Shown here: positions 13,776 to 26,290 of the stretch, one piece after another
Layout of the letters: every line of letters begins with the position of its first letter
Numbering within the stretch: the stretch's first letter is position 1
Assembly: GCF_013823385.1 (NCBI RefSeq)
Contig: NZ_PNMA01000001.1
Span: 288,135-352,134, forward strand
Length of the DNA stretch: 64,000 bases
Direction: 5' to 3'
From: Hyphomonas sp.
GTDB taxonomy: Bacteria > Pseudomonadota > Alphaproteobacteria > Caulobacterales > Hyphomonadaceae
Translations under genes and position numbers: made by a program
Notes under the pieces: model-generated
The model's database searches: none
Told to the model about the DNA's origin: nothing
Seen by the model: only the letters and a program-made list of their open reading frames with translations

Positions 13776-14234
13776 TCAGTCCCAGTTGCCGATGTCAGCG
13801 TCGTTGCCTTCTCCACCGGGTTTGCCGTCAGCACCGAAGGAGTAGACATCAAACCGGCCACCGGAACGCACACCAGGGAATGCGTACTGATAGGGATTGC
13901 CCCAGGGATCGTTCTGGACGCGGCGGATATAGCCGCCGGGGCGGTAGAGCGTGGTGTCGATGCCGGGGGGCGGGCTGGAAAGGGCGGCCAGGCCCTGATC
14001 GGTGGAGGGATAGGTGTAGAGGTCGAGGCTGTACTGCTCGAGGGCGTTCTCGAGGTTTGAGATGTCAGCCTTGGCTTTGGTGACGCGCGTGCGGTCTCCG
14101 ACCGGGGCGACGTTGACGATGATCAGCGTTGCCAGAAGGCCCATGATGAAAACCACGACCATGAGTTCGACCAGCGAAAAGCCCGCCTGACGGCGGCGCT
14201 TTTCTGCTGTGTTTGCTTCAGTTTCAGGCGTCAT
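13776..14234 (-). CDS. gspG: T2SS major pseudopilin G
   Basis: AG-FSLVELMVV, YPSTDQGLAAL, DPWGNPYQY, and GADGKPGGEGNDADIGNW. Confidence 0.96.
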   Translation of the reverse strand: MTPETEANTAEKRRRQAGFSLVELMVVVFIMGLLATLIIVNVAPVGDRTRVTKAKADISNLENALEQYSLDLYTYPSTDQGLAALSSPPPGIDTTLYRPGGYIRRVQNDPWGNPYQYAFPGVRSGGRFDVYSFGADGKPGGEGNDADIGNWD

Positions 14235-14246
14235 GAGGGCGCTCCT

Positions 14247-15458
14247 TTATCCGAGGGCGAGAGTGTTGAGCTGCATGATGGGCAGCATGATCGAGAGGAC
14301 GATGGTGCCGACAACGCCGCCCAGGAAGATGATAATCAGCGGTTCGAGCAGGCCGAGGGCAACATTGGTGGCGGTTTCAAATTCGTCTTCCAGAAAATCG
14401 GCAGCGCGGTTCATCATGGCGGGGACGTTGCGGGCTGCTTCGCCGCTGGCGACCATGTGGACCATCATCTGGGGGAAGACCCCGCTGGATTTCATGGCCG
14501 AAGAAAGGGCGCCGCCGCGCTGGACGGTTTCGAGGATCTGATCGGCTGCATCCCGAAACACCATATTTCCCATGGCGTTACGCGCGCCTGACAGGCTTTC
14601 GAGGACGGTGGCGCCGGCGCCGGACATGGTGGCGTGGATGCGGGCAAAGCGGGCCGAGGCGACCTTGCGGTTCATGTCGCCGAAAAAGGGGATGCGCAGG
14701 GCGAAGGCGTCCCAGCGGCGTTTCCAGGCCGGAATCTTCAGGACTCGCAGGGCCAGGAACACGCCAGCAACGGCCACAACCAGGACAACCAGACCCCAAT
14801 CGCGGACAAATCCGGACAAACCGATGACAAATCTGGTCAGCGGCGGCAATTCCGAGGCCCCGAGCATGGCAAACTGCTCAACGAGCTTGGGCACCACCCA
14901 GACCATGAGGGCCGTCACCATGGCGGTCGCCATGATGCCGAGGATGATCGGATAGATCAGCGCCGAGCGAACGAGGGTGCGCAGCCGGTAGCTGCGCTCC
15001 AGATGGTGGGCGAGCTGATCGAGGACGAGGCCAAGGCGGCCGGAGCTTTCGCCGGACGAGACTACCGCCCGGAAGAGCGGCGGGAAAGCGCGCGGGGCGC
15101 CCCGCATGGCTTCGGCCAGGGTGGCGCCTTCCATGACCTGGGAGCGTACACCGAGGAGCAGGCCCCGCTGGGGCGAGGCGTCGCTGTCACCCGCCGCAGC
15201 GGTCAGCGCCTGTTCGACCGTCATGCCGGAGGACACCAGCACGGCGAGCTGCCGGGTGAGGAGGGTGCGTTCCTTGTCGCTGAGGCGGCCGGTGCCGCCG
15301 AAGCCAAGGGCCTTTTCTCCACGCGCTTCGGTGAGGGAGACGGGTGTCAGCTGGCGGTCGCGCAGCTCGCGGCGGGCTGCGCGGGCGGTATCGGCCGAGA
15401 TGACGCCGCTGGTGCGCCGCCCGTCGGCTGTCAGAGCCTTGTATTCAAACGCTGCCAC
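14247..15458 (-). CDS. gspF: T2SS inner membrane platform protein F
   Basis: AFEYKAL, TRQLAVLVSSG, ALIYPIIL, and LLEPLII. Confidence 0.95.
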   Translation of the reverse strand: MAAFEYKALTADGRRTSGVISADTARAARRELRDRQLTPVSLTEARGEKALGFGGTGRLSDKERTLLTRQLAVLVSSGMTVEQALTAAAGDSDASPQRGLLLGVRSQVMEGATLAEAMRGAPRAFPPLFRAVVSSGESSGRLGLVLDQLAHHLERSYRLRTLVRSALIYPIILGIMATAMVTALMVWVVPKLVEQFAMLGASELPPLTRFVIGLSGFVRDWGLVVLVVAVAGVFLALRVLKIPAWKRRWDAFALRIPFFGDMNRKVASARFARIHATMSGAGATVLESLSGARNAMGNMVFRDAADQILETVQRGGALSSAMKSSGVFPQMMVHMVASGEAARNVPAMMNRAADFLEDEFETATNVALGLLEPLIIIFLGGVVGTIVLSIMLPIMQLNTLALG

Positions 15459-16935
15459 CGAACCAGGCCTCCCGGCGGCAGACGTGGAGCAGTTCCTCGG
15501 CGCTCGAGTCGCCGCTCAGCACATGCCGCAAACCGTTCTGGAACAGCATATCAGATTTCGCGAAAGCTGTGCGCTCAATCTCTTCTTCGGTGGCGCCGTC
15601 ATGGATCATGCGGCGGATGGGCCCGTCGATCAGCAGCAGCTCGTAGACGCCCAGCCGGCCTTCATAGCCAGTTTGGCCGCAGGCGGCGCAGCCGGTGGGC
15701 CGGTAGAGGGTGAGATCGGTTCTGCCAGCAAGGCCAAGGCGCTCCAGCAGGGCAGGCGGCGGCGAATAGGCTTCCTTGCAATGGACGCAGAGTTTCCGGA
15801 TCAGACGCTGGGCCAGAACGGCGCGCAGCGTGGAGGCGAGCAGGAAGCTCTCCACACCCATATCCCGAAGGCGGGTGATGGCACCGGCAGAGCTGTTGGT
15901 GTGGATGGTGGAGAGGGCGAGGCGGCCTGTGAGCGCAAATTCCAGTGCGACTTCGGCCGTTTCCACATCCCGGATCTCGCCGACCATGACGATATTCGGA
16001 TCGTTCCGGAGGATCGAGCGCAGGGTGGCGGCAAAGGTGAGGCCAACCTTGTGGTCCATCGGCGTCTGGCTGATGCCGTCGAGACCATATTCCACCGGGT
16101 CTTCCAGCGTCATGATGTTGACGCGGCCGGTGTTGAGCTGGGCGAGGGCAGAATAGAGCGTGGTGGTCTTGCCCGAGCCCGTCGGGCCGGTGACGAGGAT
16201 CACGCCATTGGGCTCGCTGAGGGCGGCGCGGAAGCGGCGCTCTGTGTCTTCGTCCATGCCGAGGGTTTCAAGGCCCATGAGCGCCTGACGCGTATCCAGC
16301 AGGCGCAGGGCCACGCGTTCGCCGTAGCGGGTGGGCAGTGTGGCCACGCGAACATCCAGCGCGCGCCCGCCGAGCGTCAGCGAGATGCGCCCATCCTGGG
16401 GCATGCGCTTTTCGGCAATGTCGAGCCGGCTCATGACCTTGATACGCGAGACGAGGGGGGCTGACACGCGGCGGGACGCCGTGAAGACTTCCTGCAGCTC
16501 GCCATCGATCCGGTAGCGGACCGAGAGCTTGTCCTCGAAAGGATCGATGTGGATGTCGGACGCGCGGCGGCGGATGGCATCCTGCAGCAGCCCGTTGATC
16601 AGGCTGATGATCGGGGCATCAGTGTCACCCGCGAGCAGGTCTTCCGTTTGCGGAAGGCCATCGAACAGGCTTTCAAGATCACCGCCGGTGCCGGCAGCGG
16701 CCTCGGCGGCGCTGCCGTCGAGGCGCGACTGGCCGAAGCTTTCCGAGAGCTGGCGCTCATACTGGCTGGCATTCATCGCTTCCAGATGCACCGGCAGGCC
16801 GGCAACGCGGCGGGCTTCAACCAGGGCGACGGGATCAGCGCCTTCGCGGACCGCGAACGTCAATTCTGCGCGGCCGGGAACGACGACAATCCCCTTGTCG
16901 CGGGCAAATGCATAAGTGACCTGGGCGCGCGTCAT
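15445..16935 (-). CDS. gspE: T2SS ATPase E
   Basis: ASDIHID, DIAEKRMPQDG, GPTGSGKTT, and LRNDPNIVMVGEIRD. Start placed just after the gspD stop. Confidence 0.95.
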   Translation of the reverse strand: MTRAQVTYAFARDKGIVVVPGRAELTFAVREGADPVALVEARRVAGLPVHLEAMNASQYERQLSESFGQSRLDGSAAEAAAGTGGDLESLFDGLPQTEDLLAGDTDAPIISLINGLLQDAIRRRASDIHIDPFEDKLSVRYRIDGELQEVFTASRRVSAPLVSRIKVMSRLDIAEKRMPQDGRISLTLGGRALDVRVATLPTRYGERVALRLLDTRQALMGLETLGMDEDTERRFRAALSEPNGVILVTGPTGSGKTTTLYSALAQLNTGRVNIMTLEDPVEYGLDGISQTPMDHKVGLTFAATLRSILRNDPNIVMVGEIRDVETAEVALEFALTGRLALSTIHTNSSAGAITRLRDMGVESFLLASTLRAVLAQRLIRKLCVHCKEAYSPPPALLERLGLAGRTDLTLYRPTGCAACGQTGYEGRLGVYELLLIDGPIRRMIHDGATEEEIERTAFAKSDMLFQNGLRHVLSGDSSAEELLHVCRREAWFGGSV

Positions 16936-16942
16936 GAGACAA

Positions 16943-18904
16943 TTATCGCGGAGGCTGGACCGCTTGGGAAGCCGGGCCGCCTGTTCCGAGAACCTCGCGG
17001 ACAAACTGGTCGACCGTACCGCCGGGTGTCTTGTCCCGCATCAGTTCCTCTGCCTGAACGTAGAGGTATTTCTGCTGGGTGACCGCCTGGGCGTCGGCCT
17101 TGCTGCGGACGATGGTGGGGCGGATGAAGACCATGAGATTGCGGCGCGTGGCGGCCTTGCCTTCGGACCGGAAGAGACGGCCGACGCCGGGAATGTCTCC
17201 CAGCACGGGGACCTTGGTGTCGCGCAGCGTGTCTGTCTGTTCGACGAGACCGCCCAGGACAATGATCTCGCCGTCATCTGCCAGGACGCTGGCGCGGATT
17301 TCGCGTTTGTCGAGGATCAGGTCGGGCGTCACCGTGCCGACGCTGCCGAACACGCTGGAGACTTCCTGGCGGATGTCGAGGCGGACGGTGTCGTTCTCGC
17401 CGATACGGGGGGTGACTTCGAGCTGGATACCGATGTCCTTGCGCTCGACTGTGCGGAAGGGGTTGGAATTTGCGTCCCCCAGAACCTGGCCTGTGGTGAC
17501 CGGAATTTCCTGGCCAACGATGAGCGCGGAGGTCGCGTTGTTCAGCGTCATGCCGAAGGGGGTCGACAGGATGCGCGAAGATGTATCGTCCTGAACGGCA
17601 TTGAGGATGACGCCGAAGAGATTGTCGCCGGATGTGCCGCCGAAACCGAGGGTGAGGCCTGAGGAACCCGTCAGTGAGCTGATGGCCGCATCCCGGAAGG
17701 GGTTGGTGGCCGCAGGATCGGAGAAGGCGTCCGTGACGAGCGCGCCCGTCAGGGCAAGGAGATTTGGCGCCGCGCGCGAGAAGTTGGTCGAGGCAAAGGG
17801 AACTTCGCCGCCCGTGCCGGAAAGCAGGAATTGCAGGCCAAGCTCGCGCGCCGCATCATCCGACATCTCCACGATGATGGCCTCGACCATCACCTGCGGC
17901 CGACGGACATCTAGCGCCGTGACCACGCGCTCCATGGCGAGGATGGTTTCAGGATTTGCGCTGATGACGATGGAGTTGGTGGGCCCGTGATGGGCGATCG
18001 TCTGGGAGACGGGCGCGGTCTCTGCCGGCGATCGCTGCATGGCCATGCTGTTGGCCACGCGCTCGAGGATCGGAACGACTTCTGCGGCGTCGGCATAGTT
18101 CAGCGTGATGACACGGACATGATCGCGCTGGGGGTTGGTGGCGTCGAGTTCGAGCGCGACGCGTTTGGCGCGGTCAACTGAGGTGGCGTCGCCCCGCAGG
18201 ATAATGGAGTTGCTGGTGAGGGAGGCAACGGCAGAGAGGCGATTGATGGTCTGGCCGCCCTGGCCGCCGGCGTCACCCTGAAGCCGTGTAAGGACGGTTT
18301 CTATTTCTGCGGCCGGAACGTTCGCCAACGGAATTGTTTCCGTCACGGTCTGATCGCGGTCCACGGTTTCAATGATGCGGCGGACGCGCTCGAGATTGGA
18401 CGCATAGTCGACAACGACCAGCGTGTTGGTGGCCGCATTGGCGACAACCTGACCCTGCGAGTCGAGCAGGGGCTTGATCATCTGCGCGGTTTCCATCGCA
18501 TTCGCGCGGTTAAGCTTGATGACTTCGGTGATGAACGCGTTGGCACCGGGGCCCGACATCGGCGCTTCGGTGGACGCGATGGCGCGGGGCACGATGCGGT
18601 AAGTGTCCTTGCCGGCGGGAACGGCAGCGAAGCCCTGAATGCGCAGCGTCGTCAGGAATACCTGGAAGAGTTCCTGGGTCGACATCGGCGTTTGCGAGAC
18701 GACCGATACGCGCGCCTTGCGGACATCCGGGTGCGTGACGAATGTGTATCCCGTCAGCATGGAGATGTCTTCGATCAGCGTGTTCAACTCGACATCTTCA
18801 AGGTTCAGGACGTGCTTGTCCTGAGACGGCGCAGGCGCCTGGGCGGCCGCGAACTGTGTGGCGGTGAGCGCAGCCGCAGCCGCGAGCAATATACGTTTGG
18901 TCAT
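16943..18904 (-). CDS. gspD: T2SS secretin D
   Basis: Signal peptide, N-domains, LDVRRPQVMVEAIIVE, and KVPVLGDIPGVGRLFRS. Confidence 0.95.
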   Translation of the reverse strand: MTKRILLAAAAALTATQFAAAQAPAPSQDKHVLNLEDVELNTLIEDISMLTGYTFVTHPDVRKARVSVVSQTPMSTQELFQVFLTTLRIQGFAAVPAGKDTYRIVPRAIASTEAPMSGPGANAFITEVIKLNRANAMETAQMIKPLLDSQGQVVANAATNTLVVVDYASNLERVRRIIETVDRDQTVTETIPLANVPAAEIETVLTRLQGDAGGQGGQTINRLSAVASLTSNSIILRGDATSVDRAKRVALELDATNPQRDHVRVITLNYADAAEVVPILERVANSMAMQRSPAETAPVSQTIAHHGPTNSIVISANPETILAMERVVTALDVRRPQVMVEAIIVEMSDDAARELGLQFLLSGTGGEVPFASTNFSRAAPNLLALTGALVTDAFSDPAATNPFRDAAISSLTGSSGLTLGFGGTSGDNLFGVILNAVQDDTSSRILSTPFGMTLNNATSALIVGQEIPVTTGQVLGDANSNPFRTVERKDIGIQLEVTPRIGENDTVRLDIRQEVSSVFGSVGTVTPDLILDKREIRASVLADDGEIIVLGGLVEQTDTLRDTKVPVLGDIPGVGRLFRSEGKAATRRNLMVFIRPTIVRSKADAQAVTQQKYLYVQAEELMRDKTPGGTVDQFVREVLGTGGPASQAVQPPR

Positions 18905-19782
18905 TGAGAGAGGCCGGAATCGGGGGAAAGCCGTAGGCGGACGATGGCGCCGTCGCGGACAACATCAAGCGCGATCGATTGAGAACTCATTACTGCAGAC
19001 TGGATCGCCTCGGGGCCCATGCCCTCGATGCTGGCGCCATTGACGCGCAGGACCATATCGCCCGCCTCAAGGCCGGCTGACTGGAAGTGTCCCTGGCCGC
19101 GGGGGGAGAGGCGGTAGCCGGCCACGGCGCCGTTGCGCAGTTCCGGTTGCATATCCACATCTGTCAGCAGCAGCGCAGGGGTGACCGGCGCGGCGCTTGA
19201 GCCAGCGGGAGGCGCAGAGGATGTTGGCGGCGCCGGTTGAGCCGGCTGGATGCTGACAGACGCGGCGCTGGACGATGAAGACGAGCCGGCAAACAGCGGC
19301 TTGTTCGGATCGTTCAGGAGAAGTTCCTGAAGCTGGCCGTTGAAGCGCAGGAACACACGGTCTGCCGCGACGGTTTCCAGGACGGCGCCCGAAACGATCT
19401 GTTCACCGATGGAAAAGCGCTTCTGGGTGTTATCCGGCAGGATCAGGACCGCGCTGCTGGAGCCGGCGGCCCCGTCCGACCAGCGCAGGCCGGCGATCTT
19501 CAGATTGAGAGAGGTGGGAACGGCGATCTGGCTGGGCTCGGCAGCGCTGGCGCGGAAGGGGTCTGTCTGGGTCAGCAGTGCCAGCGAGGTCTGTGCACCG
19601 GCCGCGCCGGTGACAGCGGGGATCTGGTGAAGGGCGCTGGCGCCGTCACCCGGCGCGGCAATGAGCCAGGCGAAACGGGCCAGCAGCAGGCCTGTGGTGA
19701 GGGCGAGGGCAGCTTCGATCGCGGTACGGCCGATCGAACCATACGCCAGCCGAGTGCCGCCTTCCGGTCCGAACAGTTTCAT
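18901..19782 (-). CDS. gspC: T2SS protein C with PDZ-like C-terminus
   Basis: TM, HR domain (PTSLNLKIAG...FSIGEQI), and GLEAGDMVLRVNG PDZ. First gene of the cluster. Confidence 0.85.
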   Translation of the reverse strand: MKLFGPEGGTRLAYGSIGRTAIEAALALTTGLLLARFAWLIAAPGDGASALHQIPAVTGAAGAQTSLALLTQTDPFRASAAEPSQIAVPTSLNLKIAGLRWSDGAAGSSSAVLILPDNTQKRFSIGEQIVSGAVLETVAADRVFLRFNGQLQELLLNDPNKPLFAGSSSSSSAASVSIQPAQPAPPTSSAPPAGSSAAPVTPALLLTDVDMQPELRNGAVAGYRLSPRGQGHFQSAGLEAGDMVLRVNGASIEGMGPEAIQSAVMSSQSIALDVVRDGAIVRLRLSPDSGLSQ

Positions 19783-20019: not shown

Positions 20020-22671
20020 TTAGAATGCCGCGCTGAGGCCAACGGACAGGGTTGTGCCGACTTCGTACTGGTTTACCCGCACATAGCCGTCATTGCCGGT
20101 CTGATATTCCTCGAAATCCTCCTGGAGGAGGTTTTTCGCCTTGATATCGAGCGTGAAGGCTTTGCCGCGAAGGTCGAAGCCCTTCTTGTAGACGAGATCA
20201 AGGTTGATGCCCGGATCCTGCAGGAAGTCAGGCTGGCCGGCCGGCGCGCGGGCGGTGACCCGCTCGCTGGCATAGTTGGCAAGAAGGGTCAGCTGCGAAC
20301 GGGCAGCCTCGTCTTCCCAGCCGATCTGCAGGTTGGCGATATGCTCCGACTGCCCCTGAAGGCGCGTGCCATCGATGATGAAGTCCGTAGCGGGACGGGG
20401 CTGGCCGCCCGCCTGCAGCGGAAACACCACGTCTCCGGAGCCGGCCTTCACCTCAGATGTGGTGTAGGTGTAGTTGGCCTGCACCAGGAATTCCTTCGAG
20501 TCGAAGAAGGCTCCCTTGATCGGGCTGTCGAAAACACGTTTGAAGTCGATCTCGGCGCCGTAGAGGATGGCTTCAGGCGCGTTGAGGTAGGTCTGGAAAA
20601 CCGAGGCGCTCTGCTGAACCACGACAGATTCCACCGGACGGTCGAGCTGCTTGAAGAAAACGCCCGCGGTCACGGCCTGGCCGCGATCAAAGTACATTTC
20701 GTACCGGGCGTCGAGGTTCAGGATTTCCGTATCGGTCAGGTAGGGGTTACCGATGAAGGTCCGGCCGCTGTCCGTGTCGTAATACTGCTGGGGCGCAAGT
20801 TCGCGGAACTGCGGGCGGCCGATGCTCTTGGAAGCCCCCAGACGAAGCTGCTGATCTTCGGCGAAGTTCCAGGTCAGGGTAAGGGCCGGCAGCAGGTACT
20901 GGTTTTCCAGTTCCGGCGGCGCTTCCGGCGCAGTTTCTGAGGAGATCAGTGAGAGGGGCGTTACCGACTGGGTAGCGTCTTCGAAACGCAGGCCGACAGC
21001 GGTGCGCACCAGAGGAATGATTTCCGCATCAACCTTCGCATAGGCGCCGAAGACCTTCAGGTCTGCGTCATAAGCGGCCGCACCGGATGAGCCAGTGGTT
21101 TCGCGCAGGACAAAGAGATCAGGATTGATGTTGTAGTTTGCGAACAGGAAGTCCGGGCGCTGTTGCGACACGAGGAAATCCAGTGGCGGATTGCCCACAA
21201 TGAAGCTGAAGATGCGCGCCTGGGCGCTGCGTTCGTTCTGATAGGCTTCCACCCCCGCCGAGTATTCGATGTCGCGGGCGGAGGAGAGCGCCTGAACATA
21301 TTTCAGATCGGCGCCACCGCTTACAACCTTATCGTCGAGGAAGGAGAACGTCGTGCTGTTCGACGAGCCCGAACCCGAAGGATCGTAGATATAGCTGTTG
21401 GTGAGGTCGCTGAATATGAAGCGCGTGGCCCGCTCATACGGAGCATCGCGCTTGGTCTGGGAAAGCGCGGCTCTCCAGTCGAGAGTCCACGGGCCGCGAT
21501 AGTGGTCGCCGTTGATCTGGGTGCTGTAGAGTTCGCGGGCATACCAACCCGTGCGGTCATCCCGCACATCGCGCGACGCCAGATCGTCGTATCCTTCGCG
21601 GATGCTCGTCTGTTTCGTGGTGCGGCGGACGTAGAGATTGGTCCAGTTGAACTTGTCATCGCCAAAATCAAGACCGACGCCGAAGAGGCCGTCCCAGCCG
21701 ATGTTTTGCTCCGTAGTCAGATAATCATAGGTAGAGGTGGCGCTGAGAATGCCGCCGTTGATCTCGCCGACTTCCTGCCGGCCATCCCGCGTACGCCATT
21801 CATTGCTGTAGCCAAGGACACCGATGATGCCGAGTTCTGCGCCGCCGAGATCAAAGGACGTCCCGCCAGAAGCTTCATAGCTGCCGTTCATCGGGATGCT
21901 GTCATTCGACTGGATCAGGTTGATGGGCGCATTGGTGAATGCCTGGCCCATAGCCTGCAGTTCGGCGTTGGTGAAGTTGTTGTTCTGGATCCGATTGCCG
22001 GTAGCCATAGCCTGGCGCACCAGGCCGGGGATCTTGCGTGTGCCATCGTCAAAGCCGAGTACATCGCTGTCGGCGCCGTAATGCGTGATGCCGTCCTTAC
22101 CGGTCGTTTCGGTATTGTAGCTGCCCGAGACGCTGAGTTCGAGGAAGCGTTCCTTGGGGATGTTCAGCGTGCGAAGATCGATGATGCCACCACCGAATTC
22201 GCCCGGATACTCAACCGAGTAGGTCTTCTGGACAAGGACGTTTTCGAGAATGTTCGTAGGGAAGAGATCGAGCGGAACGACGCGCTGGAGCGGTTCCGGG
22301 CTCGGAAGGGGGGAACCGTTAAGGCGGGCAGCAGAATAGCGCTCACCCAGGCCGCGCACATAGACGAAGCGGCCTTCGGCAATCGTGATGCCGGTTACGC
22401 GTGCCAAAGCGGAGGCGGCGTCGGAGTCGCCCTGACGCGCAAGGTCTTCCGGCGCGAGGAACGCGGCAACCTCAGAGGTGCTGCGCAGCACTTCCGGGAT
22501 ATAACGCCCAAGAACCACAACCTCCTGAAGTTTAAGATCCTGAGCTTCGGGTGCTGCCGCCTCAGGGGAGGTTTCGGTGGAATTTTCGGATTGAGCCGAT
22601 GCGAAAGCCGGCACGAGGATCGCTGTCGAAGCGATCAGCAGGGTCCGGAGGGACAGCGAGCTGAATTTCAT
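20020..22671 (-). CDS. TonB-dependent outer membrane receptor
   Basis: Signal peptide MKFSSLSLRTLL, TonB box EVVVLG, plug motifs (ALARVTGIT, YVRGLGERYS, LDLFPT), and C-terminal Phe. Confidence 0.95.
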   Translation of the reverse strand: MKFSSLSLRTLLIASTAILVPAFASAQSENSTETSPEAAAPEAQDLKLQEVVVLGRYIPEVLRSTSEVAAFLAPEDLARQGDSDAASALARVTGITIAEGRFVYVRGLGERYSAARLNGSPLPSPEPLQRVVPLDLFPTNILENVLVQKTYSVEYPGEFGGGIIDLRTLNIPKERFLELSVSGSYNTETTGKDGITHYGADSDVLGFDDGTRKIPGLVRQAMATGNRIQNNNFTNAELQAMGQAFTNAPINLIQSNDSIPMNGSYEASGGTSFDLGGAELGIIGVLGYSNEWRTRDGRQEVGEINGGILSATSTYDYLTTEQNIGWDGLFGVGLDFGDDKFNWTNLYVRRTTKQTSIREGYDDLASRDVRDDRTGWYARELYSTQINGDHYRGPWTLDWRAALSQTKRDAPYERATRFIFSDLTNSYIYDPSGSGSSNSTTFSFLDDKVVSGGADLKYVQALSSARDIEYSAGVEAYQNERSAQARIFSFIVGNPPLDFLVSQQRPDFLFANYNINPDLFVLRETTGSSGAAAYDADLKVFGAYAKVDAEIIPLVRTAVGLRFEDATQSVTPLSLISSETAPEAPPELENQYLLPALTLTWNFAEDQQLRLGASKSIGRPQFRELAPQQYYDTDSGRTFIGNPYLTDTEILNLDARYEMYFDRGQAVTAGVFFKQLDRPVESVVVQQSASVFQTYLNAPEAILYGAEIDFKRVFDSPIKGAFFDSKEFLVQANYTYTTSEVKAGSGDVVFPLQAGGQPRPATDFIIDGTRLQGQSEHIANLQIGWEDEAARSQLTLLANYASERVTARAPAGQPDFLQDPGINLDLVYKKGFDLRGKAFTLDIKAKNLLQEDFEEYQTGNDGYVRVNQYEVGTTLSVGLSAAF

Positions 22672-22750: not shown

Positions 22751-24322
22751 TTAATGGCAGGTCGGCTGGCCGGGCAGGCTGCAGGTCCAACCCGCATACC
22801 AGGTGTCGTTCGCATTGCGGACGGCGCCGATATAGTCGACCGGCGTGAGGAAGCCCGTGATGAACGTGTTGCTCGTGCCCAGACCGACCCCTGCGTTCAG
22901 CGCGGTGGGGAAGGCAGATGCGGTAACAGCGTTCTCGTTCGCGCCGTTGATGAACCCGCCCGTCAGGGTGGAGGTTCCGTTCAGCACGTTGGTGGGGTGG
23001 GTCAGCAGCGCTTCGACGGTGGCATCCGGGATGTCGGTTGCCGGCGTGGTGCCAGCCGCGCCGCCATCACCATTGCCGCCGGCGCAGGAGAAGAACACCG
23101 AGCGATAGAGCGGACCGTTGCCGTCAACGCCGTTCGGATTGTTCAGCGTCGAGTTGGTGGCGATGTTCACGCACTGATGGTTGCCCGGATGGCGGATAAC
23201 CGTGTTGTAAACGCGCGCCGTGTGGCCGGTATTGTGGACGATGGCGTCCCGCGTGCTGTTTTCACGCATGACGACTGTCCAGTTGGCGTAGGTCGGACGG
23301 GTGAAGAAGTCAGCCGTGTTGGTGCCGCGCGAGCTGGTTTCCCAGCCAAAGTCCCCGCCACCCGAGCGTTGATAAACGATGCCGAACTGAGCCGCGCCGC
23401 GCCAGCCGGAGTCGGTGTCGAAGCCATCATCATCGATACCAGTCAGCACGATGTATTTGAGGTTCACGTTGCCGCCGAAGATCTCGATGCCGTCATCCGA
23501 GCTGTTGTGAACCTGGACGTACTCAAACGTGGTTCCGTTGCCGACGCCGGCCAGGGTGATGCCGTTGAGTTCGTTGTTCGGCGCAATTTCAAAGCCGGAG
23601 TAGGAGAGGCGGAGGTAGCGGATACGGCCGCTGTTGTCGGTCGGTGTGTTGCCGCCGTAGAATGCGTCTGCGCCTTCCACCTGTGCCTCACAGGCGATGT
23701 TCGGAGGGGTTACAGCGCCGCAGCCATCCGTCGTCGGAGCACGGCCCAGGATCACAAGACCGCCCCATTGGCCAATCGAGTTCTCGGTGGTGTTTCCTTC
23801 GATGTCTGTGCGGCTCGTCATAATGATCGGGTCGTTGGCTGCGCCTTCAGCGAAGATCTGCGAACCACGGTTCACGAGAAGGTAGTCGCCACCCGAGTTG
23901 CCGAACAGCGTGACGCCCGGCTCGATCGTCAGGATGCCCGACTGGCGGCCCGCAATTGGGGCGTTCGGGTCACGGCCGAGATCTGTACCCACCTGGGTGC
24001 GGCCAGCGATTGAGTAGAGCGTGCCGGCCCGCTTGGGAACCACGAGGTTGCCAGTGATGGTGCTGGGCAGCTGGCAGATGCGGTTGTCAGCAAGAACGCC
24101 GATATTTGCAAAACCGGCCGGGCAATCAGCAGCCGGACCGCCGGTCGGGGTGGTTGGGGTGGTCGGAGTGGTTGGGGTGGTCGGGGTGGTGGGCGCCGAC
24201 GGCGGCGGTACGAACGCGCCAACGCCAGGCGAGGCGACGCCGTCGGCGCCGCTGCAAGCGCCAAGCAGCGCGACTGCAGCGCAGCCGAGAAGCACCGCGC
24301 GGAAGTTATTCTTGGTCAACAT
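22751..24322 (-). CDS. Surface lipoprotein, probable beta-helix, ElpS-like
   Basis: Lipobox LGA-C, RBS GGAG before ATG 24322, (PTT)5 linker, and GQWGGLVILG / NELNGITLAGVG / SSDDGIEIFGG / DDDGFDTD motifs. ElpS similarity is inferred from synteny, not alignment. Confidence 0.8.
   Translation of the reverse strand: MLTKNNFRAVLLGCAAVALLGACSGADGVASPGVGAFVPPPSAPTTPTTPTTPTTPTTPTGGPAADCPAGFANIGVLADNRICQLPSTITGNLVVPKRAGTLYSIAGRTQVGTDLGRDPNAPIAGRQSGILTIEPGVTLFGNSGGDYLLVNRGSQIFAEGAANDPIIMTSRTDIEGNTTENSIGQWGGLVILGRAPTTDGCGAVTPPNIACEAQVEGADAFYGGNTPTDNSGRIRYLRLSYSGFEIAPNNELNGITLAGVGNGTTFEYVQVHNSSDDGIEIFGGNVNLKYIVLTGIDDDGFDTDSGWRGAAQFGIVYQRSGGGDFGWETSSRGTNTADFFTRPTYANWTVVMRENSTRDAIVHNTGHTARVYNTVIRHPGNHQCVNIATNSTLNNPNGVDGNGPLYRSVFFSCAGGNGDGGAAGTTPATDIPDATVEALLTHPTNVLNGTSTLTGGFINGANENAVTASAFPTALNAGVGLGTSNTFITGFLTPVDYIGAVRNANDTWYAGWTCSLPGQPTCH
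24143..24193 (-). repeat. 9-bp coding tandem repeat encoding (PTT)5-PT
   Basis: GGTGGTYGG-type units, 51 nt = 17 aa. Confidence 0.9.
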
Positions 24323-24430
24323 CAATGTCTCCGTCATGAACCCTGAGCGGGCGCGCTGACGGTTTCCCCCGCCGCGCTCGCCAGACGTTAACTGCCGTCT
24401 GCCCGCAGCGCGGAGCCTTAAGATTTGATT

Positions 24431-24470
24431 GCAACACTTACGGGAAGTTTAGATGACACTTACATGAAGC
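24431..24470 (-). promoter_or_regulatory. Four-unit Pho-box-like array upstream of the lipoprotein
   Basis: Minus strand GCTTCAT GTAA GTGTCAT CTAA ACTTCCC GTAA GTGTTGC has an exact 11-bp period. A -10-like TAAGGC lies 10 nt downstream. Confidence 0.6.
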
Positions 24471-24490
24471 TGTCGCGCAGCGCGACTTGT

Positions 24491-24508
24491 GTGACACCTT
24501 GGCAACAT
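24491..24508 (-). promoter_or_regulatory. Additional Pho-box-like pair
   Basis: Minus strand ATGTTGC CAAG GTGTCAC. Confidence 0.4.
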
Positions 24509-25356
24509 TACAGATTTGTGGAGTATTCGGCGGGAAACATCTCCCCCCAACCCCGTTCCCGGAACCATTTGGTAATGACGTATTTCACGCCCGAGCGTAC
24601 CTTCATCCCGTGATGGATCGTGTACGGATTTACGGTTCCGTCCGGATTCAGATTGTTCCAGATCACGGCTTTGCCCTTTTCGGGCATGATGGTTTTCTCA
24701 AGCCTGCGAAACCGGGTGCCGCCACCTTCTTCCACATCATTGAGATAGATCATGAAGGTCCAGGTGCGCTGGCCGGTGAACTGGCAGTGAACCTGATAAT
24801 CCCTGGTTCCCGGCATGAAATAATCATAGTGCGCCTTGTATTCCTGATCGACATCATAGCGCTGCGTTTGCGTGGCGTCGGAATAGGACCAGTGAACGCC
24901 GAGGGCTTCGGCGATGAGTTCGTCCAGCTGCATCACCAGGTTGTGGCCAAGCGAGCCGATATCGGAGGAGCGTGACGTGCGGATCTTCGGGTCAGCGAAG
25001 ACATCTGTAGTGGTGGAAGCACGCAGGCGCTCATCTGTAAGGGCGATCAGCTGGTCGCAGATCTCAGGAACAAGGAAATTAGGCCAGACATAGAGCTGTG
25101 CCTTGGACACAGGAACCCGCCGCAGCAGGGGATGGTTCAGAGCCCGCCGGGTGAGGGGGGCATTGGCGAGTGCGGCATGGTCCACATCTGAGACCGGCCG
25201 GCGGCCGTCATAGGCAGCGCGCATGAGTGCGCGTACCGCCGCGTCGTCAAACCCGTTCTTGATGAGCAGGCGTTTGACCTCATGCGGCTCCACCCCTGAT
25301 CTCAGGCGCACCCATGTGAAGGTCAGCCACTCATCGCTGATAGTCGTGTTTGTCAT
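24508..25356 (-). CDS. 2OG-Fe(II) oxygenase, prolyl 4-hydroxylase-like
   Basis: RTS, QRYDVDQEYKAHYD (HxD), TFMIYLNDVEEGGGT, HHGMKVRSGVKY, and TKWFR. No signal peptide. Confidence 0.9.
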   Translation of the reverse strand: MTNTTISDEWLTFTWVRLRSGVEPHEVKRLLIKNGFDDAAVRALMRAAYDGRRPVSDVDHAALANAPLTRRALNHPLLRRVPVSKAQLYVWPNFLVPEICDQLIALTDERLRASTTTDVFADPKIRTSRSSDIGSLGHNLVMQLDELIAEALGVHWSYSDATQTQRYDVDQEYKAHYDYFMPGTRDYQVHCQFTGQRTWTFMIYLNDVEEGGGTRFRRLEKTIMPEKGKAVIWNNLNPDGTVNPYTIHHGMKVRSGVKYVITKWFRERGWGEMFPAEYSTNL

Positions 25357-25393
25357 CGCAGCACCATTCCTGTGGCGTGAATAGTGCAGGGAT

Positions 25394-25411
25394 GTGACGA
25401 TCAGATGACAC
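25394..25411 (-). promoter_or_regulatory. Pho-box-like pair upstream of the dioxygenase
   Basis: Minus strand GTGTCAT CTGA TCGTCAC, then 10 nt, then TATTCA (25383-25378). Confidence 0.6.
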
Positions 25412-25474: not shown

Positions 25475-25503
25475 TTGACGCAAATATGTAAAATATGTAC
25501 TGT
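25475..25503 (+). promoter_or_regulatory. Sigma70-type promoter, probably giving a leaderless CAP transcript
   Basis: TTGACG-N17-TACTGT ends 7 nt before ATG 25511. No RBS is visible. Confidence 0.55.
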
Positions 25504-25530
25504 GACAGTTATGTTACAGTGGAAATACAG
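25502..25530 (-). promoter_or_regulatory. Strong Pho-box-like array overlapping the CAP gene start
   Basis: Minus strand CTGTATT TCCA CTGTAAC ATAA CTGTCAC. The last 18 nt match the E. coli consensus CTGTCATAWAWCTGTCAY at 16/18. Confidence 0.65.
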
Positions 25531-26290
25531 AGCTTTGTCACTCCTCGCTCTGGCGATTGCGGCGCCAGGGGTGGCCCTTTCGGAAGCCGGTTCGCCGGCG
25601 CGTTTCTCACCCGGAGAATCGAACGGCATGATTGCTGCGGCAGACCGTTCGAACGTCAGTAGAGATCTTCTTACTGCAATGGATGGTGTCCGGCAGGATG
25701 CCGGCCTGGCGGAATTGGCGGAGCATCAGAAACTGTCCCTCGTTGCCCAGGAGCATGCAAGGGACATGGCGCGCCGGCACTATGCGGCGGACGTCTCCCC
25801 CGAGGGCCGAACGTTGCTTGATCATGTCCGGCAGGCTGACCGGCAGACGCTTTACAGCGCGTTCGGGACGGCAATTGCCATCGTGGATGCTGGCACCAGC
25901 GCAGAAACCGTGCTGGCGGCACTGATGTCTGATCCGGCCAACAAGGCGAACCTGCTGCGGTCAGGCTTCGATCATGTCGGGATCGGCGCAGTCGAGCAGG
26001 ATGGCCGGCTTTATGTCGTGCAATTGCTGGCGCGTGTTGAGGGGCAGCTGCAACGGCCGCTGCCGGTCAATTCGAGCGGCGCAGAGAGCCTGCGTGTGGA
26101 CCTTGCTGCCCGCGGCATGACCCCGGTGAGCTGGTCGCTCAGCGATGGCGCGGGGGCAACCCTGCTTCGCGGTACCGGTGAGCGTATTCGCGATCCGCGC
26201 GGCACAGGCGCTGAAGGATACCTCAACCTCGACGTTGCCATGGGGCCGGACGTCTACACGCTGCGTGGGCCGTATGTCCGCGTGAACTGA
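25511..26290 (+). CDS. Secreted CAP (SCP/PR-1) domain protein, degenerate
   Basis: Signal peptide, VAQEHARDMA, and NKANLLRSGFDHVGIG CAP motifs, plus a C-terminal extension. Confidence 0.8.
   Translation: MLQWKYRALSLLALAIAAPGVALSEAGSPARFSPGESNGMIAAADRSNVSRDLLTAMDGVRQDAGLAELAEHQKLSLVAQEHARDMARRHYAADVSPEGRTLLDHVRQADRQTLYSAFGTAIAIVDAGTSAETVLAALMSDPANKANLLRSGFDHVGIGAVEQDGRLYVVQLLARVEGQLQRPLPVNSSGAESLRVDLAARGMTPVSWSLSDGAGATLLRGTGERIRDPRGTGAEGYLNLDVAMGPDVYTLRGPYVRVN

Follow-up and report, generated by a model that had tools for sequence, protein, structure and literature searches.

A predicted Pho-regulated prolyl 4-hydroxylase linked to the ElpS lipoprotein, TonB receptor and type II secretion genes of Hyphomonas

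Why does a gene for a prolyl hydroxylase stand directly in front of a gene for a lipoprotein with a proline-rich linker? The question is raised by a stretch of 64,000 nucleotides (nt) from Hyphomonas sp. (assembly GCF_013823385.1, contig NZ_PNMA01000001.1, positions 288,135 to 352,134), here called the window. On its minus strand a prolyl 4-hydroxylase (P4H) gene is followed by a gene for an ElpS-type lipoprotein, a TonB-dependent receptor gene and the type II secretion system (T2SS) genes gspC, D, E, F and G, as read from the open reading frames of the window. The answer proposed is that the locus is the Hyphomonas version of a known phosphate-scavenging module, consisting of ElpS, a TonB receptor and the T2SS under PhoB control, which has gained a Pho-regulated P4H hydroxylating the lipoprotein tether. 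A probability of about 0.4 is given to this statement as a whole. Functional coupling of the Pho-regulated P4H to the ElpS module is in itself likely. That the ElpS tether is hydroxylated in the cytoplasm, ahead of export, is a plausible but tentative proposal and the best single hypothesis. The genes and protein parts in question are the following.

24508..25356, minus strand: gene for a P4H-family Fe(II)/2-oxoglutarate (2OG) oxygenase of 282 amino acids
22751..24322, minus strand: gene for the ElpS-type lipoprotein, 523 amino acids from the ATG at 24322, with PF28492 (Beta_helix_4)
22751..24322, minus strand: parts of ElpS, namely a signal peptide with lipobox LLGAC, a disordered tether and a right-handed beta-helix
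24143..24208, minus strand: Pro-rich tether core PPPSA(PTT)5PT, mature residues P39-T60
20020..22671, minus strand: TonB-dependent receptor gene (Plug and TonB_dep_Rec_b-barrel; TIGR01782, E = 9e-61)
13776..19782, minus strand: type II secretion genes gspC, gspD, gspE, gspF and gspG (T2SSC, Secretin, T2SSE, T2SSF and T2SSG)

The P4H and lipoprotein genes are separated by 170-185 nt. The likely start of the receptor is M49 of the listed open reading frame (MKFSSLSL...), and more gsp genes are found downstream of gspG. Of the named relatives, H. polymorpha PS728 is the nearest; its P4H is 94%, its lipoprotein 88% and its receptor 97% identical to the proteins of the window.

In a Pfam search the 282-residue oxygenase matched PF13640 with an E-value of 1.1e-16, above the cut-off, and no signal for PhyH, TauD or PKHD_C was obtained. 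Sequence matches in the PDB were the P4H of Bacillus anthracis (BaP4H, E = 4e-26), the alpha-2 subunit of human collagen P4H (C-P4H, E = 2e-19), Chlamydomonas P4H-1 (E = 2e-15) and also the P4H of PBCV-1; chains of Pseudomonas PPHD or of prolyl hydroxylase domain (PHD) enzymes were absent at E <= 0.01. Alignment of 38 homologues showed H176-x-D178, H248 and K258 to be invariant, and the HxD...H iron triad and the 2OG-binding basic residue align with the motifs of BaP4H. N-terminal to the catalytic domain that carries these residues lies a conserved helical domain about 75 residues long (about 8-75). A signal peptide was not found in the enzyme. An AlphaFold2 model built on the same alignment had a confidence (pLDDT) of 93.7, and its top Foldseek matches were the (Ser-Pro)5-bound algal P4H-1, BaP4H, C-P4H-II and the PBCV-1 enzyme vCPH, with E-values of 1e-17 to 1e-13. 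Ranks 1-34 were all P4Hs, with a TM-score to the target of 0.7-0.8. PPHD and HIF PHD2 appeared with E-values of only about 1e-8, ranked under all collagen-type P4Hs.

The enzyme of the window is predicted from these comparisons to be an intact peptidyl-prolyl 4-hydroxylase of the collagen/plant type, with a probable location in the cytoplasm. A P4H-like enzyme with an intact HxD...H motif had been proposed in a preliminary description of this DNA, and the PF13640 match, the similarity to BaP4H and the invariant residues bear this out. An identity as EF-Tu/HIF-type PHD was ruled out, because both the fold and the sequence ranking favour the collagen-type P4Hs. A PiuC/YbiX-type hydroxylase beside a siderophore receptor was also ruled out, since PF13640 was the only Pfam family found and the best relatives are P4Hs, as was a phosphonate-pathway 2OG oxygenase of the PhyH/TauD type, for which there was no matching Pfam signal. 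The same data bear on the idea that the substrate is a small molecule, for instance proline in free form, or a nutrient (organophosphorus or organic) taken up via the TonB receptor, so that the enzyme would be a catabolic part in phosphate scavenging. Small molecules are the substrates of many 2OG oxygenases that belong to phosphonate pathways or are encoded near TonB receptors, and the P4H gene does lie near a nutrient-uptake receptor under predicted Pho control. However, sequence and fold are firmly those of a peptidyl-prolyl 4-hydroxylase, and an additional, conserved helical domain at the N-terminus points to a macromolecular partner. A small-molecule substrate is considered very improbable.

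The lipoprotein is 51-53% identical to its homologue in C. vibrioides (51.5% across residues 30-527, T5M6), where the same order of elpS, TonB-dependent receptor, gspD and gspE is found. gspD lies downstream of elpS in 41 of 49 long related loci. The family PF28492, of which more than 2000 members were found at E <= 0.001, is precomputed for all relatives of the lipoprotein; searches of a local Pfam without the PF28492 model, of NCBIfam and of PDB sequences gave no match. The conserved start is the ATG at 24322 and not that at 24337. The lipobox reads MLTKNNFRAVLLGCAAVALLGAC, its Cys is invariant among orthologues, and after LLGAC the protein continues as ...FVPPPSAPTTPTTPTTPTTPTTPTGGPAAD. In the AlphaFold2 model, residues 11-62 had a pLDDT below 50 and are predicted to form a disordered tether, followed by the right-handed beta-helix. 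Foldseek returned only generic beta-helix matches for this model (E > 1e-3), which point to no enzymatic function, and the beta-helix is without a close solved relative. By its sequence and gene order the lipoprotein is assigned as the orthologue of Caulobacter ElpS. The PPPSA(PTT)5PT linker, said in the preliminary description to belong to a lipoprotein encoded directly after the P4H gene, was found as described. The 9-bp repeat coding for PTT is present in five units here and in three to four in H. polymorpha PS728 and Hyphomonas sp. NPDC076881 (L049, L051); such variation of copy number among very close strains suggests that tether length changes by slippage.

Caulobacter ElpS (CC0170) is a lipoprotein whose induction is a specific response to phosphate starvation (Le Blastier et al. 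2010, PMC2996285). It is anchored on the surface of the outer membrane and is freed by cleavage at residue 38, just past the lipid cysteine, and this release depends on both the T2SS and a protease (PMC2996285). The elpS gene lies upstream of the TonB receptor gene CC0171 and gspC-N, and the same layout was noted in Hyphomonas neptunium (PMC2996285). The PhoB regulon of Caulobacter takes in the T2SS and TonB receptors (PMC11208175).

Are P4H and elpS of the window also under PhoB control? The following elements were found upstream of P4H and elpS.

25502..25519, minus strand: distal Pho box CTGTAAC-ATAA-CTGTCAC of the P4H gene, overlapping the start codon (25511) of a divergent CAP-family gene
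25394..25411, minus strand: proximal Pho box GTGTCAT-CTGA-TCGTCAC of the P4H gene, the site of the preliminary description
25378..25383, minus strand: candidate -10 hexamer TATTCA, N10 after the proximal Pho box, of a putative promoter
24431..24470, minus strand: Pho-box array of elpS, four units with 11-bp phasing, GCTTCAT GTAA GTGTCAT CTAA ACTTCCC GTAA GTGTTGC

The pstCAB-phoU-phoB operon of the same genome is preceded by TTGTCAC-ATAA-CTGTCGC-N10-TATTTG, with the geometry of the proximal P4H box, which marks the latter as the organism's own type of Pho box. A related array, GTTACAC-AAGC-TTGTCAC-AAAA-GAGTAAC, precedes pstS. The distal P4H box is nearer to the consensus than the proximal one. 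The genome was scanned with patterns modelled on its own pstC and pstS boxes. The stricter of them, TGTCAY-N5-YGTCAY, was found at four sites in 4.18 Mb, against about two expected from base composition, and the proximal box is one of the four. A relaxed scan gave 12 sites, which include pstS, both P4H sites and three other genes whose label as receptor-like rests on N-terminal sequence only. A genome scan with the E. coli-style pattern CTGTCAT-N4-CTGTCAT (at least 12 of 14 matches) was uninformative.

Both P4H boxes are conserved among orthologues that are 70-96% identical. In eight aligned promoters, and at 15 of 16 named Hyphomonas loci, their half-sites and position are kept and the spacers and flanking sequence vary; the proximal box lies at about -50 to -55 and the distal box at -151 to -175 (15/16). 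Orthologues have CGTAAC-like hexamers at the position of TATTCA. The orthologous elpS arrays are nearly invariant (TTGTCAC-GCAA-CCGTCAT-CTAA-ACTT), and in the window TAAGGC is found 10 nt after the array (24420->24415). One P4H-bearing Hyphomonas locus (L077, P4H 85% identical) showed neither Pho-box pattern upstream by the regular expression used. PhoB control of both P4H and elpS is a well supported prediction. The putative Pho-box promoter that the preliminary description had placed before P4H (25411->25378) stands, with conserved half-sites and the geometry of pstC. As elpS has a Pho-box promoter of its own, the two genes would be co-regulated and not necessarily co-transcribed.

Is the pairing of the two genes a regular feature? 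In Hyphomonas, all 14 genomes with a P4H orthologue (at least 70% identity) carry the gene about 180 nt upstream of a single-domain (~520 amino acids) ElpS gene. The other sampled Hyphomonas genomes had a two-domain (~920 amino acids) ElpS or, in three incomplete assemblies, no ElpS match, and none of them had a P4H orthologue. The tandem two-domain protein is the form found in most other Hyphomonas (G005, G006, G009 and others; P0083, P0096). The single-domain ElpS proteins of Hyphomonas form a clade whose sister in the ElpS tree is Brevundimonas, a position that hints at replacement of ElpS by horizontal transfer. Three Hyphomonas assemblies (L052, L065, L067; G440-G442) fall inside the P4H-bearing ElpS clade, yet lack P4H altogether, at the locus as well as in the rest of the assembly; their tethers are still poly-Pro. 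The L052 locus has the CAP gene immediately next to elpS, which is consistent with a clean secondary loss of P4H. Contigs of metagenome-assembled genomes labelled Acidobacteria/Sulfopaludibacter, Rhizobium and Afipia (L053, L059, L060, L084, L093) carry Hyphomonas-, Arenimonas- or Brevundimonas-like loci, and these mismatches point to probable binning contamination or mislabelled records.

A second linkage was found in Lysobacteraceae when named genomes were scanned with the ElpS alignment. In Luteimonas, Pseudoxanthomonas, Novilysobacter and related assemblies the P4H gene is divergent from elpS at a distance of 260-590 nt. The encoded P4H has the same N-terminal domain and catalytic residues as the enzyme of the window, is 28% identical to it and is nearer to BaP4H (E = 5e-45). 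Pho-box arrays face the gene; that of L. kalidii is a perfect CTGTCATCGTGCTGTCAT, and in a gammaproteobacterial metagenome-assembled genome three phased TGTCAT units face P4H. P4H was present in 13 of 13 ElpS-bearing Lysobacteraceae genomes compared with 21 of 121 overall (naive hypergeometric p = 2e-12). Its distance from elpS is about 14 kb in two of the 13, and in the other 11 the two genes are adjacent. Two small genomes of the family (G346, G407) have two tandem P4H-like genes and no ElpS, so this P4H branch also has ElpS-independent uses. In the ElpS tree the P4H-linked groups of Hyphomonas and Lysobacteraceae are two distinct clades, each strongly supported, and the P4H-less Brevundimonas, Caulobacter and Phenylobacterium fall between the two. 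The rates of divergence of P4H and ElpS are similar inside each lineage. From one lineage to the other, identity is 28% for P4H and about 50% for ElpS, and two independent recruitments are the simplest reading of this pattern. The functional link between the P4H and the lipoprotein locus that the preliminary description had drawn is supported by this adjacency in two distant lineages, with different P4H branches and orientations.

Does the tether follow the enzyme? None of the 23 parsed ElpS proteins encoded next to a P4H had a Gly-rich tether; all were Pro-rich or Pro/Thr-rich. The 49 non-adjacent elpS loci with enough flanking sequence comprised 21 poly-Gly, 17 mixed and 11 Pro-rich tethers, and the Fisher p-value for adjacency against a Gly-rich tether was 2e-4, uncorrected for phylogeny. 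Tether repeat number and composition drift between close relatives, through PTT repeats, poly-Pro and PA/PV; such drift is typical of low-complexity linkers.

The proposed course of events starts with phosphate limitation. Phosphorylated PhoB would bind at 25519-25502 and 25411-25394 in front of P4H and at 24470-24431 in front of elpS, and both genes would be switched on. The cytoplasmic P4H, with Fe(II), 2-oxoglutarate and O2, would then hydroxylate prolines in the disordered tether of pre-ElpS, acting on the unfolded chain ahead of Sec export and lipidation. (Ser-Pro)n, poly-Pro and similar Pro-rich repeats are substrates of algal and viral P4Hs. The proposal is compatible with the locus because this class of enzyme acts on unfolded Pro-rich repeats and the tether stands directly behind the signal peptide. 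Hydroxyproline would be expected to stiffen a polyproline-II tether, and could alter its cutting by a T2SS-dependent protease like that which releases ElpS in Caulobacter. Taken further, and with somewhat more reserve, ElpS may be a hydroxyproline-containing bacterial surface protein in the manner of the plant hydroxyproline-rich glycoproteins, with a PhoB-switched P4H acting on its tether and tuning rigidity and release, an arrangement that would have evolved twice. The preliminary description had also seen in the hydroxylated linker a possible handle for glycosylation; this was not supported, as no glycosyltransferase was found among the window genes in the neighbourhood of P4H and elpS.

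A number of observations weigh against tether hydroxylation as the purpose of the linkage. SPPPPPPPPPP tethers occur in five Hyphomonas genomes that lack any P4H-like gene, and among 12 single-domain loci with a Pro-rich tether and no P4H next to elpS, eight have a P4H elsewhere in the assembly and four have none. The co-occurrence of the dioxygenase with Pro-rich linkers to which the preliminary description had looked was therefore found in part: adjacent tethers are never Gly-rich, but Pro-rich tethers also occur without any P4H gene. The link between P4H and tether is not obligatory. Six other genera have P4H orthologues of 42-63% identity, none of them linked to elpS, and four of these orthologues coexist with Gly-rich or mixed ElpS tethers. 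The two whose contexts were examined, P0183 (Pseudomonadota, 60%) and Ponticaulis P0198 (48%), stand alone beside an aconitase-family gene, with no Pho box, and a Thiothrix homologue is also stand-alone and without a Pho box. The enzyme is predicted to be cytoplasmic and its supposed substrate is exported, so the modification would have to come before Sec translocation. The linkage statistics are uncorrected for phylogeny and come effectively from two independent lineages. Moreover, the linkage cannot tell whether ElpS, the co-located receptor or the T2SS is the partner that matters.

Part of these data would also be met if the P4H had landed or stayed by chance in a Pho-regulated island, with no specific relation to ElpS, the receptor or the T2SS. 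Alphaproteobacterial adjacency is confined to one Hyphomonas subclade and is missing in L052, L065 and L067, members of it, the P0183 and Ponticaulis orthologues have the other neighbour just mentioned, and Pro-rich tethers are common low-complexity linkers. Chance adjacency does not sit well with a linkage that arose independently in Lysobacteraceae, with another P4H branch, another orientation and its own Pho boxes, nor with two Pho boxes conserved in Hyphomonas across the range of orthologues given above, and it is regarded as improbable.

The P4H could also be a genuine partner in the Pho regulon and act on another protein, such as EF-Tu or another translation factor in the cytoplasm, or a further Pro-rich protein of the envelope that serves the module, for instance TonB, GspC or the receptor. 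EF-Tu hydroxylation has been reported for Pseudomonas PPHD and B. anthracis P4H. For an enzyme with no signal peptide a cytoplasmic target is topologically the simplest, and the GspC of the window has a Ser/Pro-rich stretch. P4H orthologues persist without an adjacent elpS or alongside Gly-rich ElpS tethers, as described above, and eight of the 21 P4H-bearing Lysobacteraceae genomes are without ElpS. BaP4H is the closest solved bacterial relative, and its PDB entry 5v7y is titled as modifying EF-Tu. A general translation target does not, however, explain two P4H branches beside elpS in two bacterial classes, nor why the adjacent ElpS tethers are never Gly-rich, and the EF-Tu/HIF-type hydroxylases are the poorer structural matches (E of about 1e-8 against 1e-17). 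Another protein substrate is judged unlikely, though less so than chance adjacency or a small-molecule substrate, and hydroxylation of the ElpS tether is kept as the preferred reading.

Two further features of the locus were noted.

25511-26290, divergent from P4H and upstream of it: gene for a secreted protein of the CAP/YkwD family
24323..24414, minus strand: 5' leader of elpS, GC-rich and highly conserved in an alignment of orthologues, with predicted stem-loops

The CAP gene is syntenic at 16 of 17 P4H-bearing Hyphomonas loci and was not found in L064. Because the distal Pho box overlaps its ATG (25511), PhoB bound there could repress the CAP gene while activating leftward transcription. 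The elpS leader is more conserved than the adjacent coding sequence in seven Hyphomonas genomes. RNAalifold gave -44 kcal/mol for it, with compensatory change in two pairs only, and Rfam gave no match for either the leader or the P4H upstream region. The leader may act as a cis-regulatory RNA or serve to bind a protein.

How much of this is new? The induction of ElpS and its link to the T2SS are published, so the connection of PhoB, surface lipoprotein and T2SS is known and the P4H is the new element. The view of the preliminary description that no link between PhoB, a P4H and a surface lipoprotein had been described needs correction for the PhoB-lipoprotein part (PMC2996285, PMC11208175), and appears to hold for the P4H part. 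A literature search gave no report linking a prolyl hydroxylase to PhoB, ElpS, TonB receptors or the T2SS. The P4H adds an unrecognised component to the module of ElpS, TonB receptor and T2SS. The locus offers a concrete, repeatedly evolved pair of enzyme and candidate substrate under a defined signal, phosphate limitation, in culturable carriers: Hyphomonas polymorpha, Luteimonas and possibly Xanthomonas-type genomes. To our knowledge, the physiological substrates of bacterial collagen-type P4Hs are essentially unknown, and we know of hardly any documented hydroxyproline in bacterial secreted or surface proteins. If tether hydroxylation is true, ElpS would be the first physiological substrate of a bacterial collagen-type P4H assigned from genomic context, in a partnership that evolved twice, from different P4H branches, in Hyphomonas and Lysobacteraceae.

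Among known systems, the ElpS module of Caulobacter is shared by the window in its orthologous lipoprotein with lipobox, conserved D-x-VASPG-x-G-x-F motif and beta-helix, in the gene order of elpS, TonB-dependent receptor and gspC/D/E, and in the Pho boxes at the elpS promoter. In contrast to the window, no P4H lies beside elpS at any Caulobacteraceae locus examined. Of four whole Caulobacteraceae genomes, three of Caulobacter/Phenylobacterium have no P4H-like gene and Brevundimonas lutea has an unlinked one. Caulobacteraceae tethers are mostly poly-Gly or NPT/TPT, whereas the window has a Pro/Thr-rich tether and a Pho-boxed P4H before elpS. With BaP4H, Chlamydomonas P4H-1, PBCV-1 vCPH and human C-P4H the enzyme shares the catalytic fold, the HxD...H triad and the 2OG-binding Lys. 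It differs from them in its extra N-terminal helical domain, a core of only about 30% identity, predicted PhoB control and linkage to a locus of lipoprotein, receptor and T2SS. Pseudomonas PPHD and the HIF-type PHDs are likewise Fe(II)/2OG prolyl hydroxylases with bacterial cytoplasmic members, but the enzyme of the window falls outside that branch. The pair in Lysobacteraceae resembles the window in an N-terminal helical domain joined to a P4H core and in a single-domain ElpS with a poly-Pro tether followed by receptor and T2SS, and differs from it in a P4H gene that is divergent rather than co-directional and in an ElpS of another clade.

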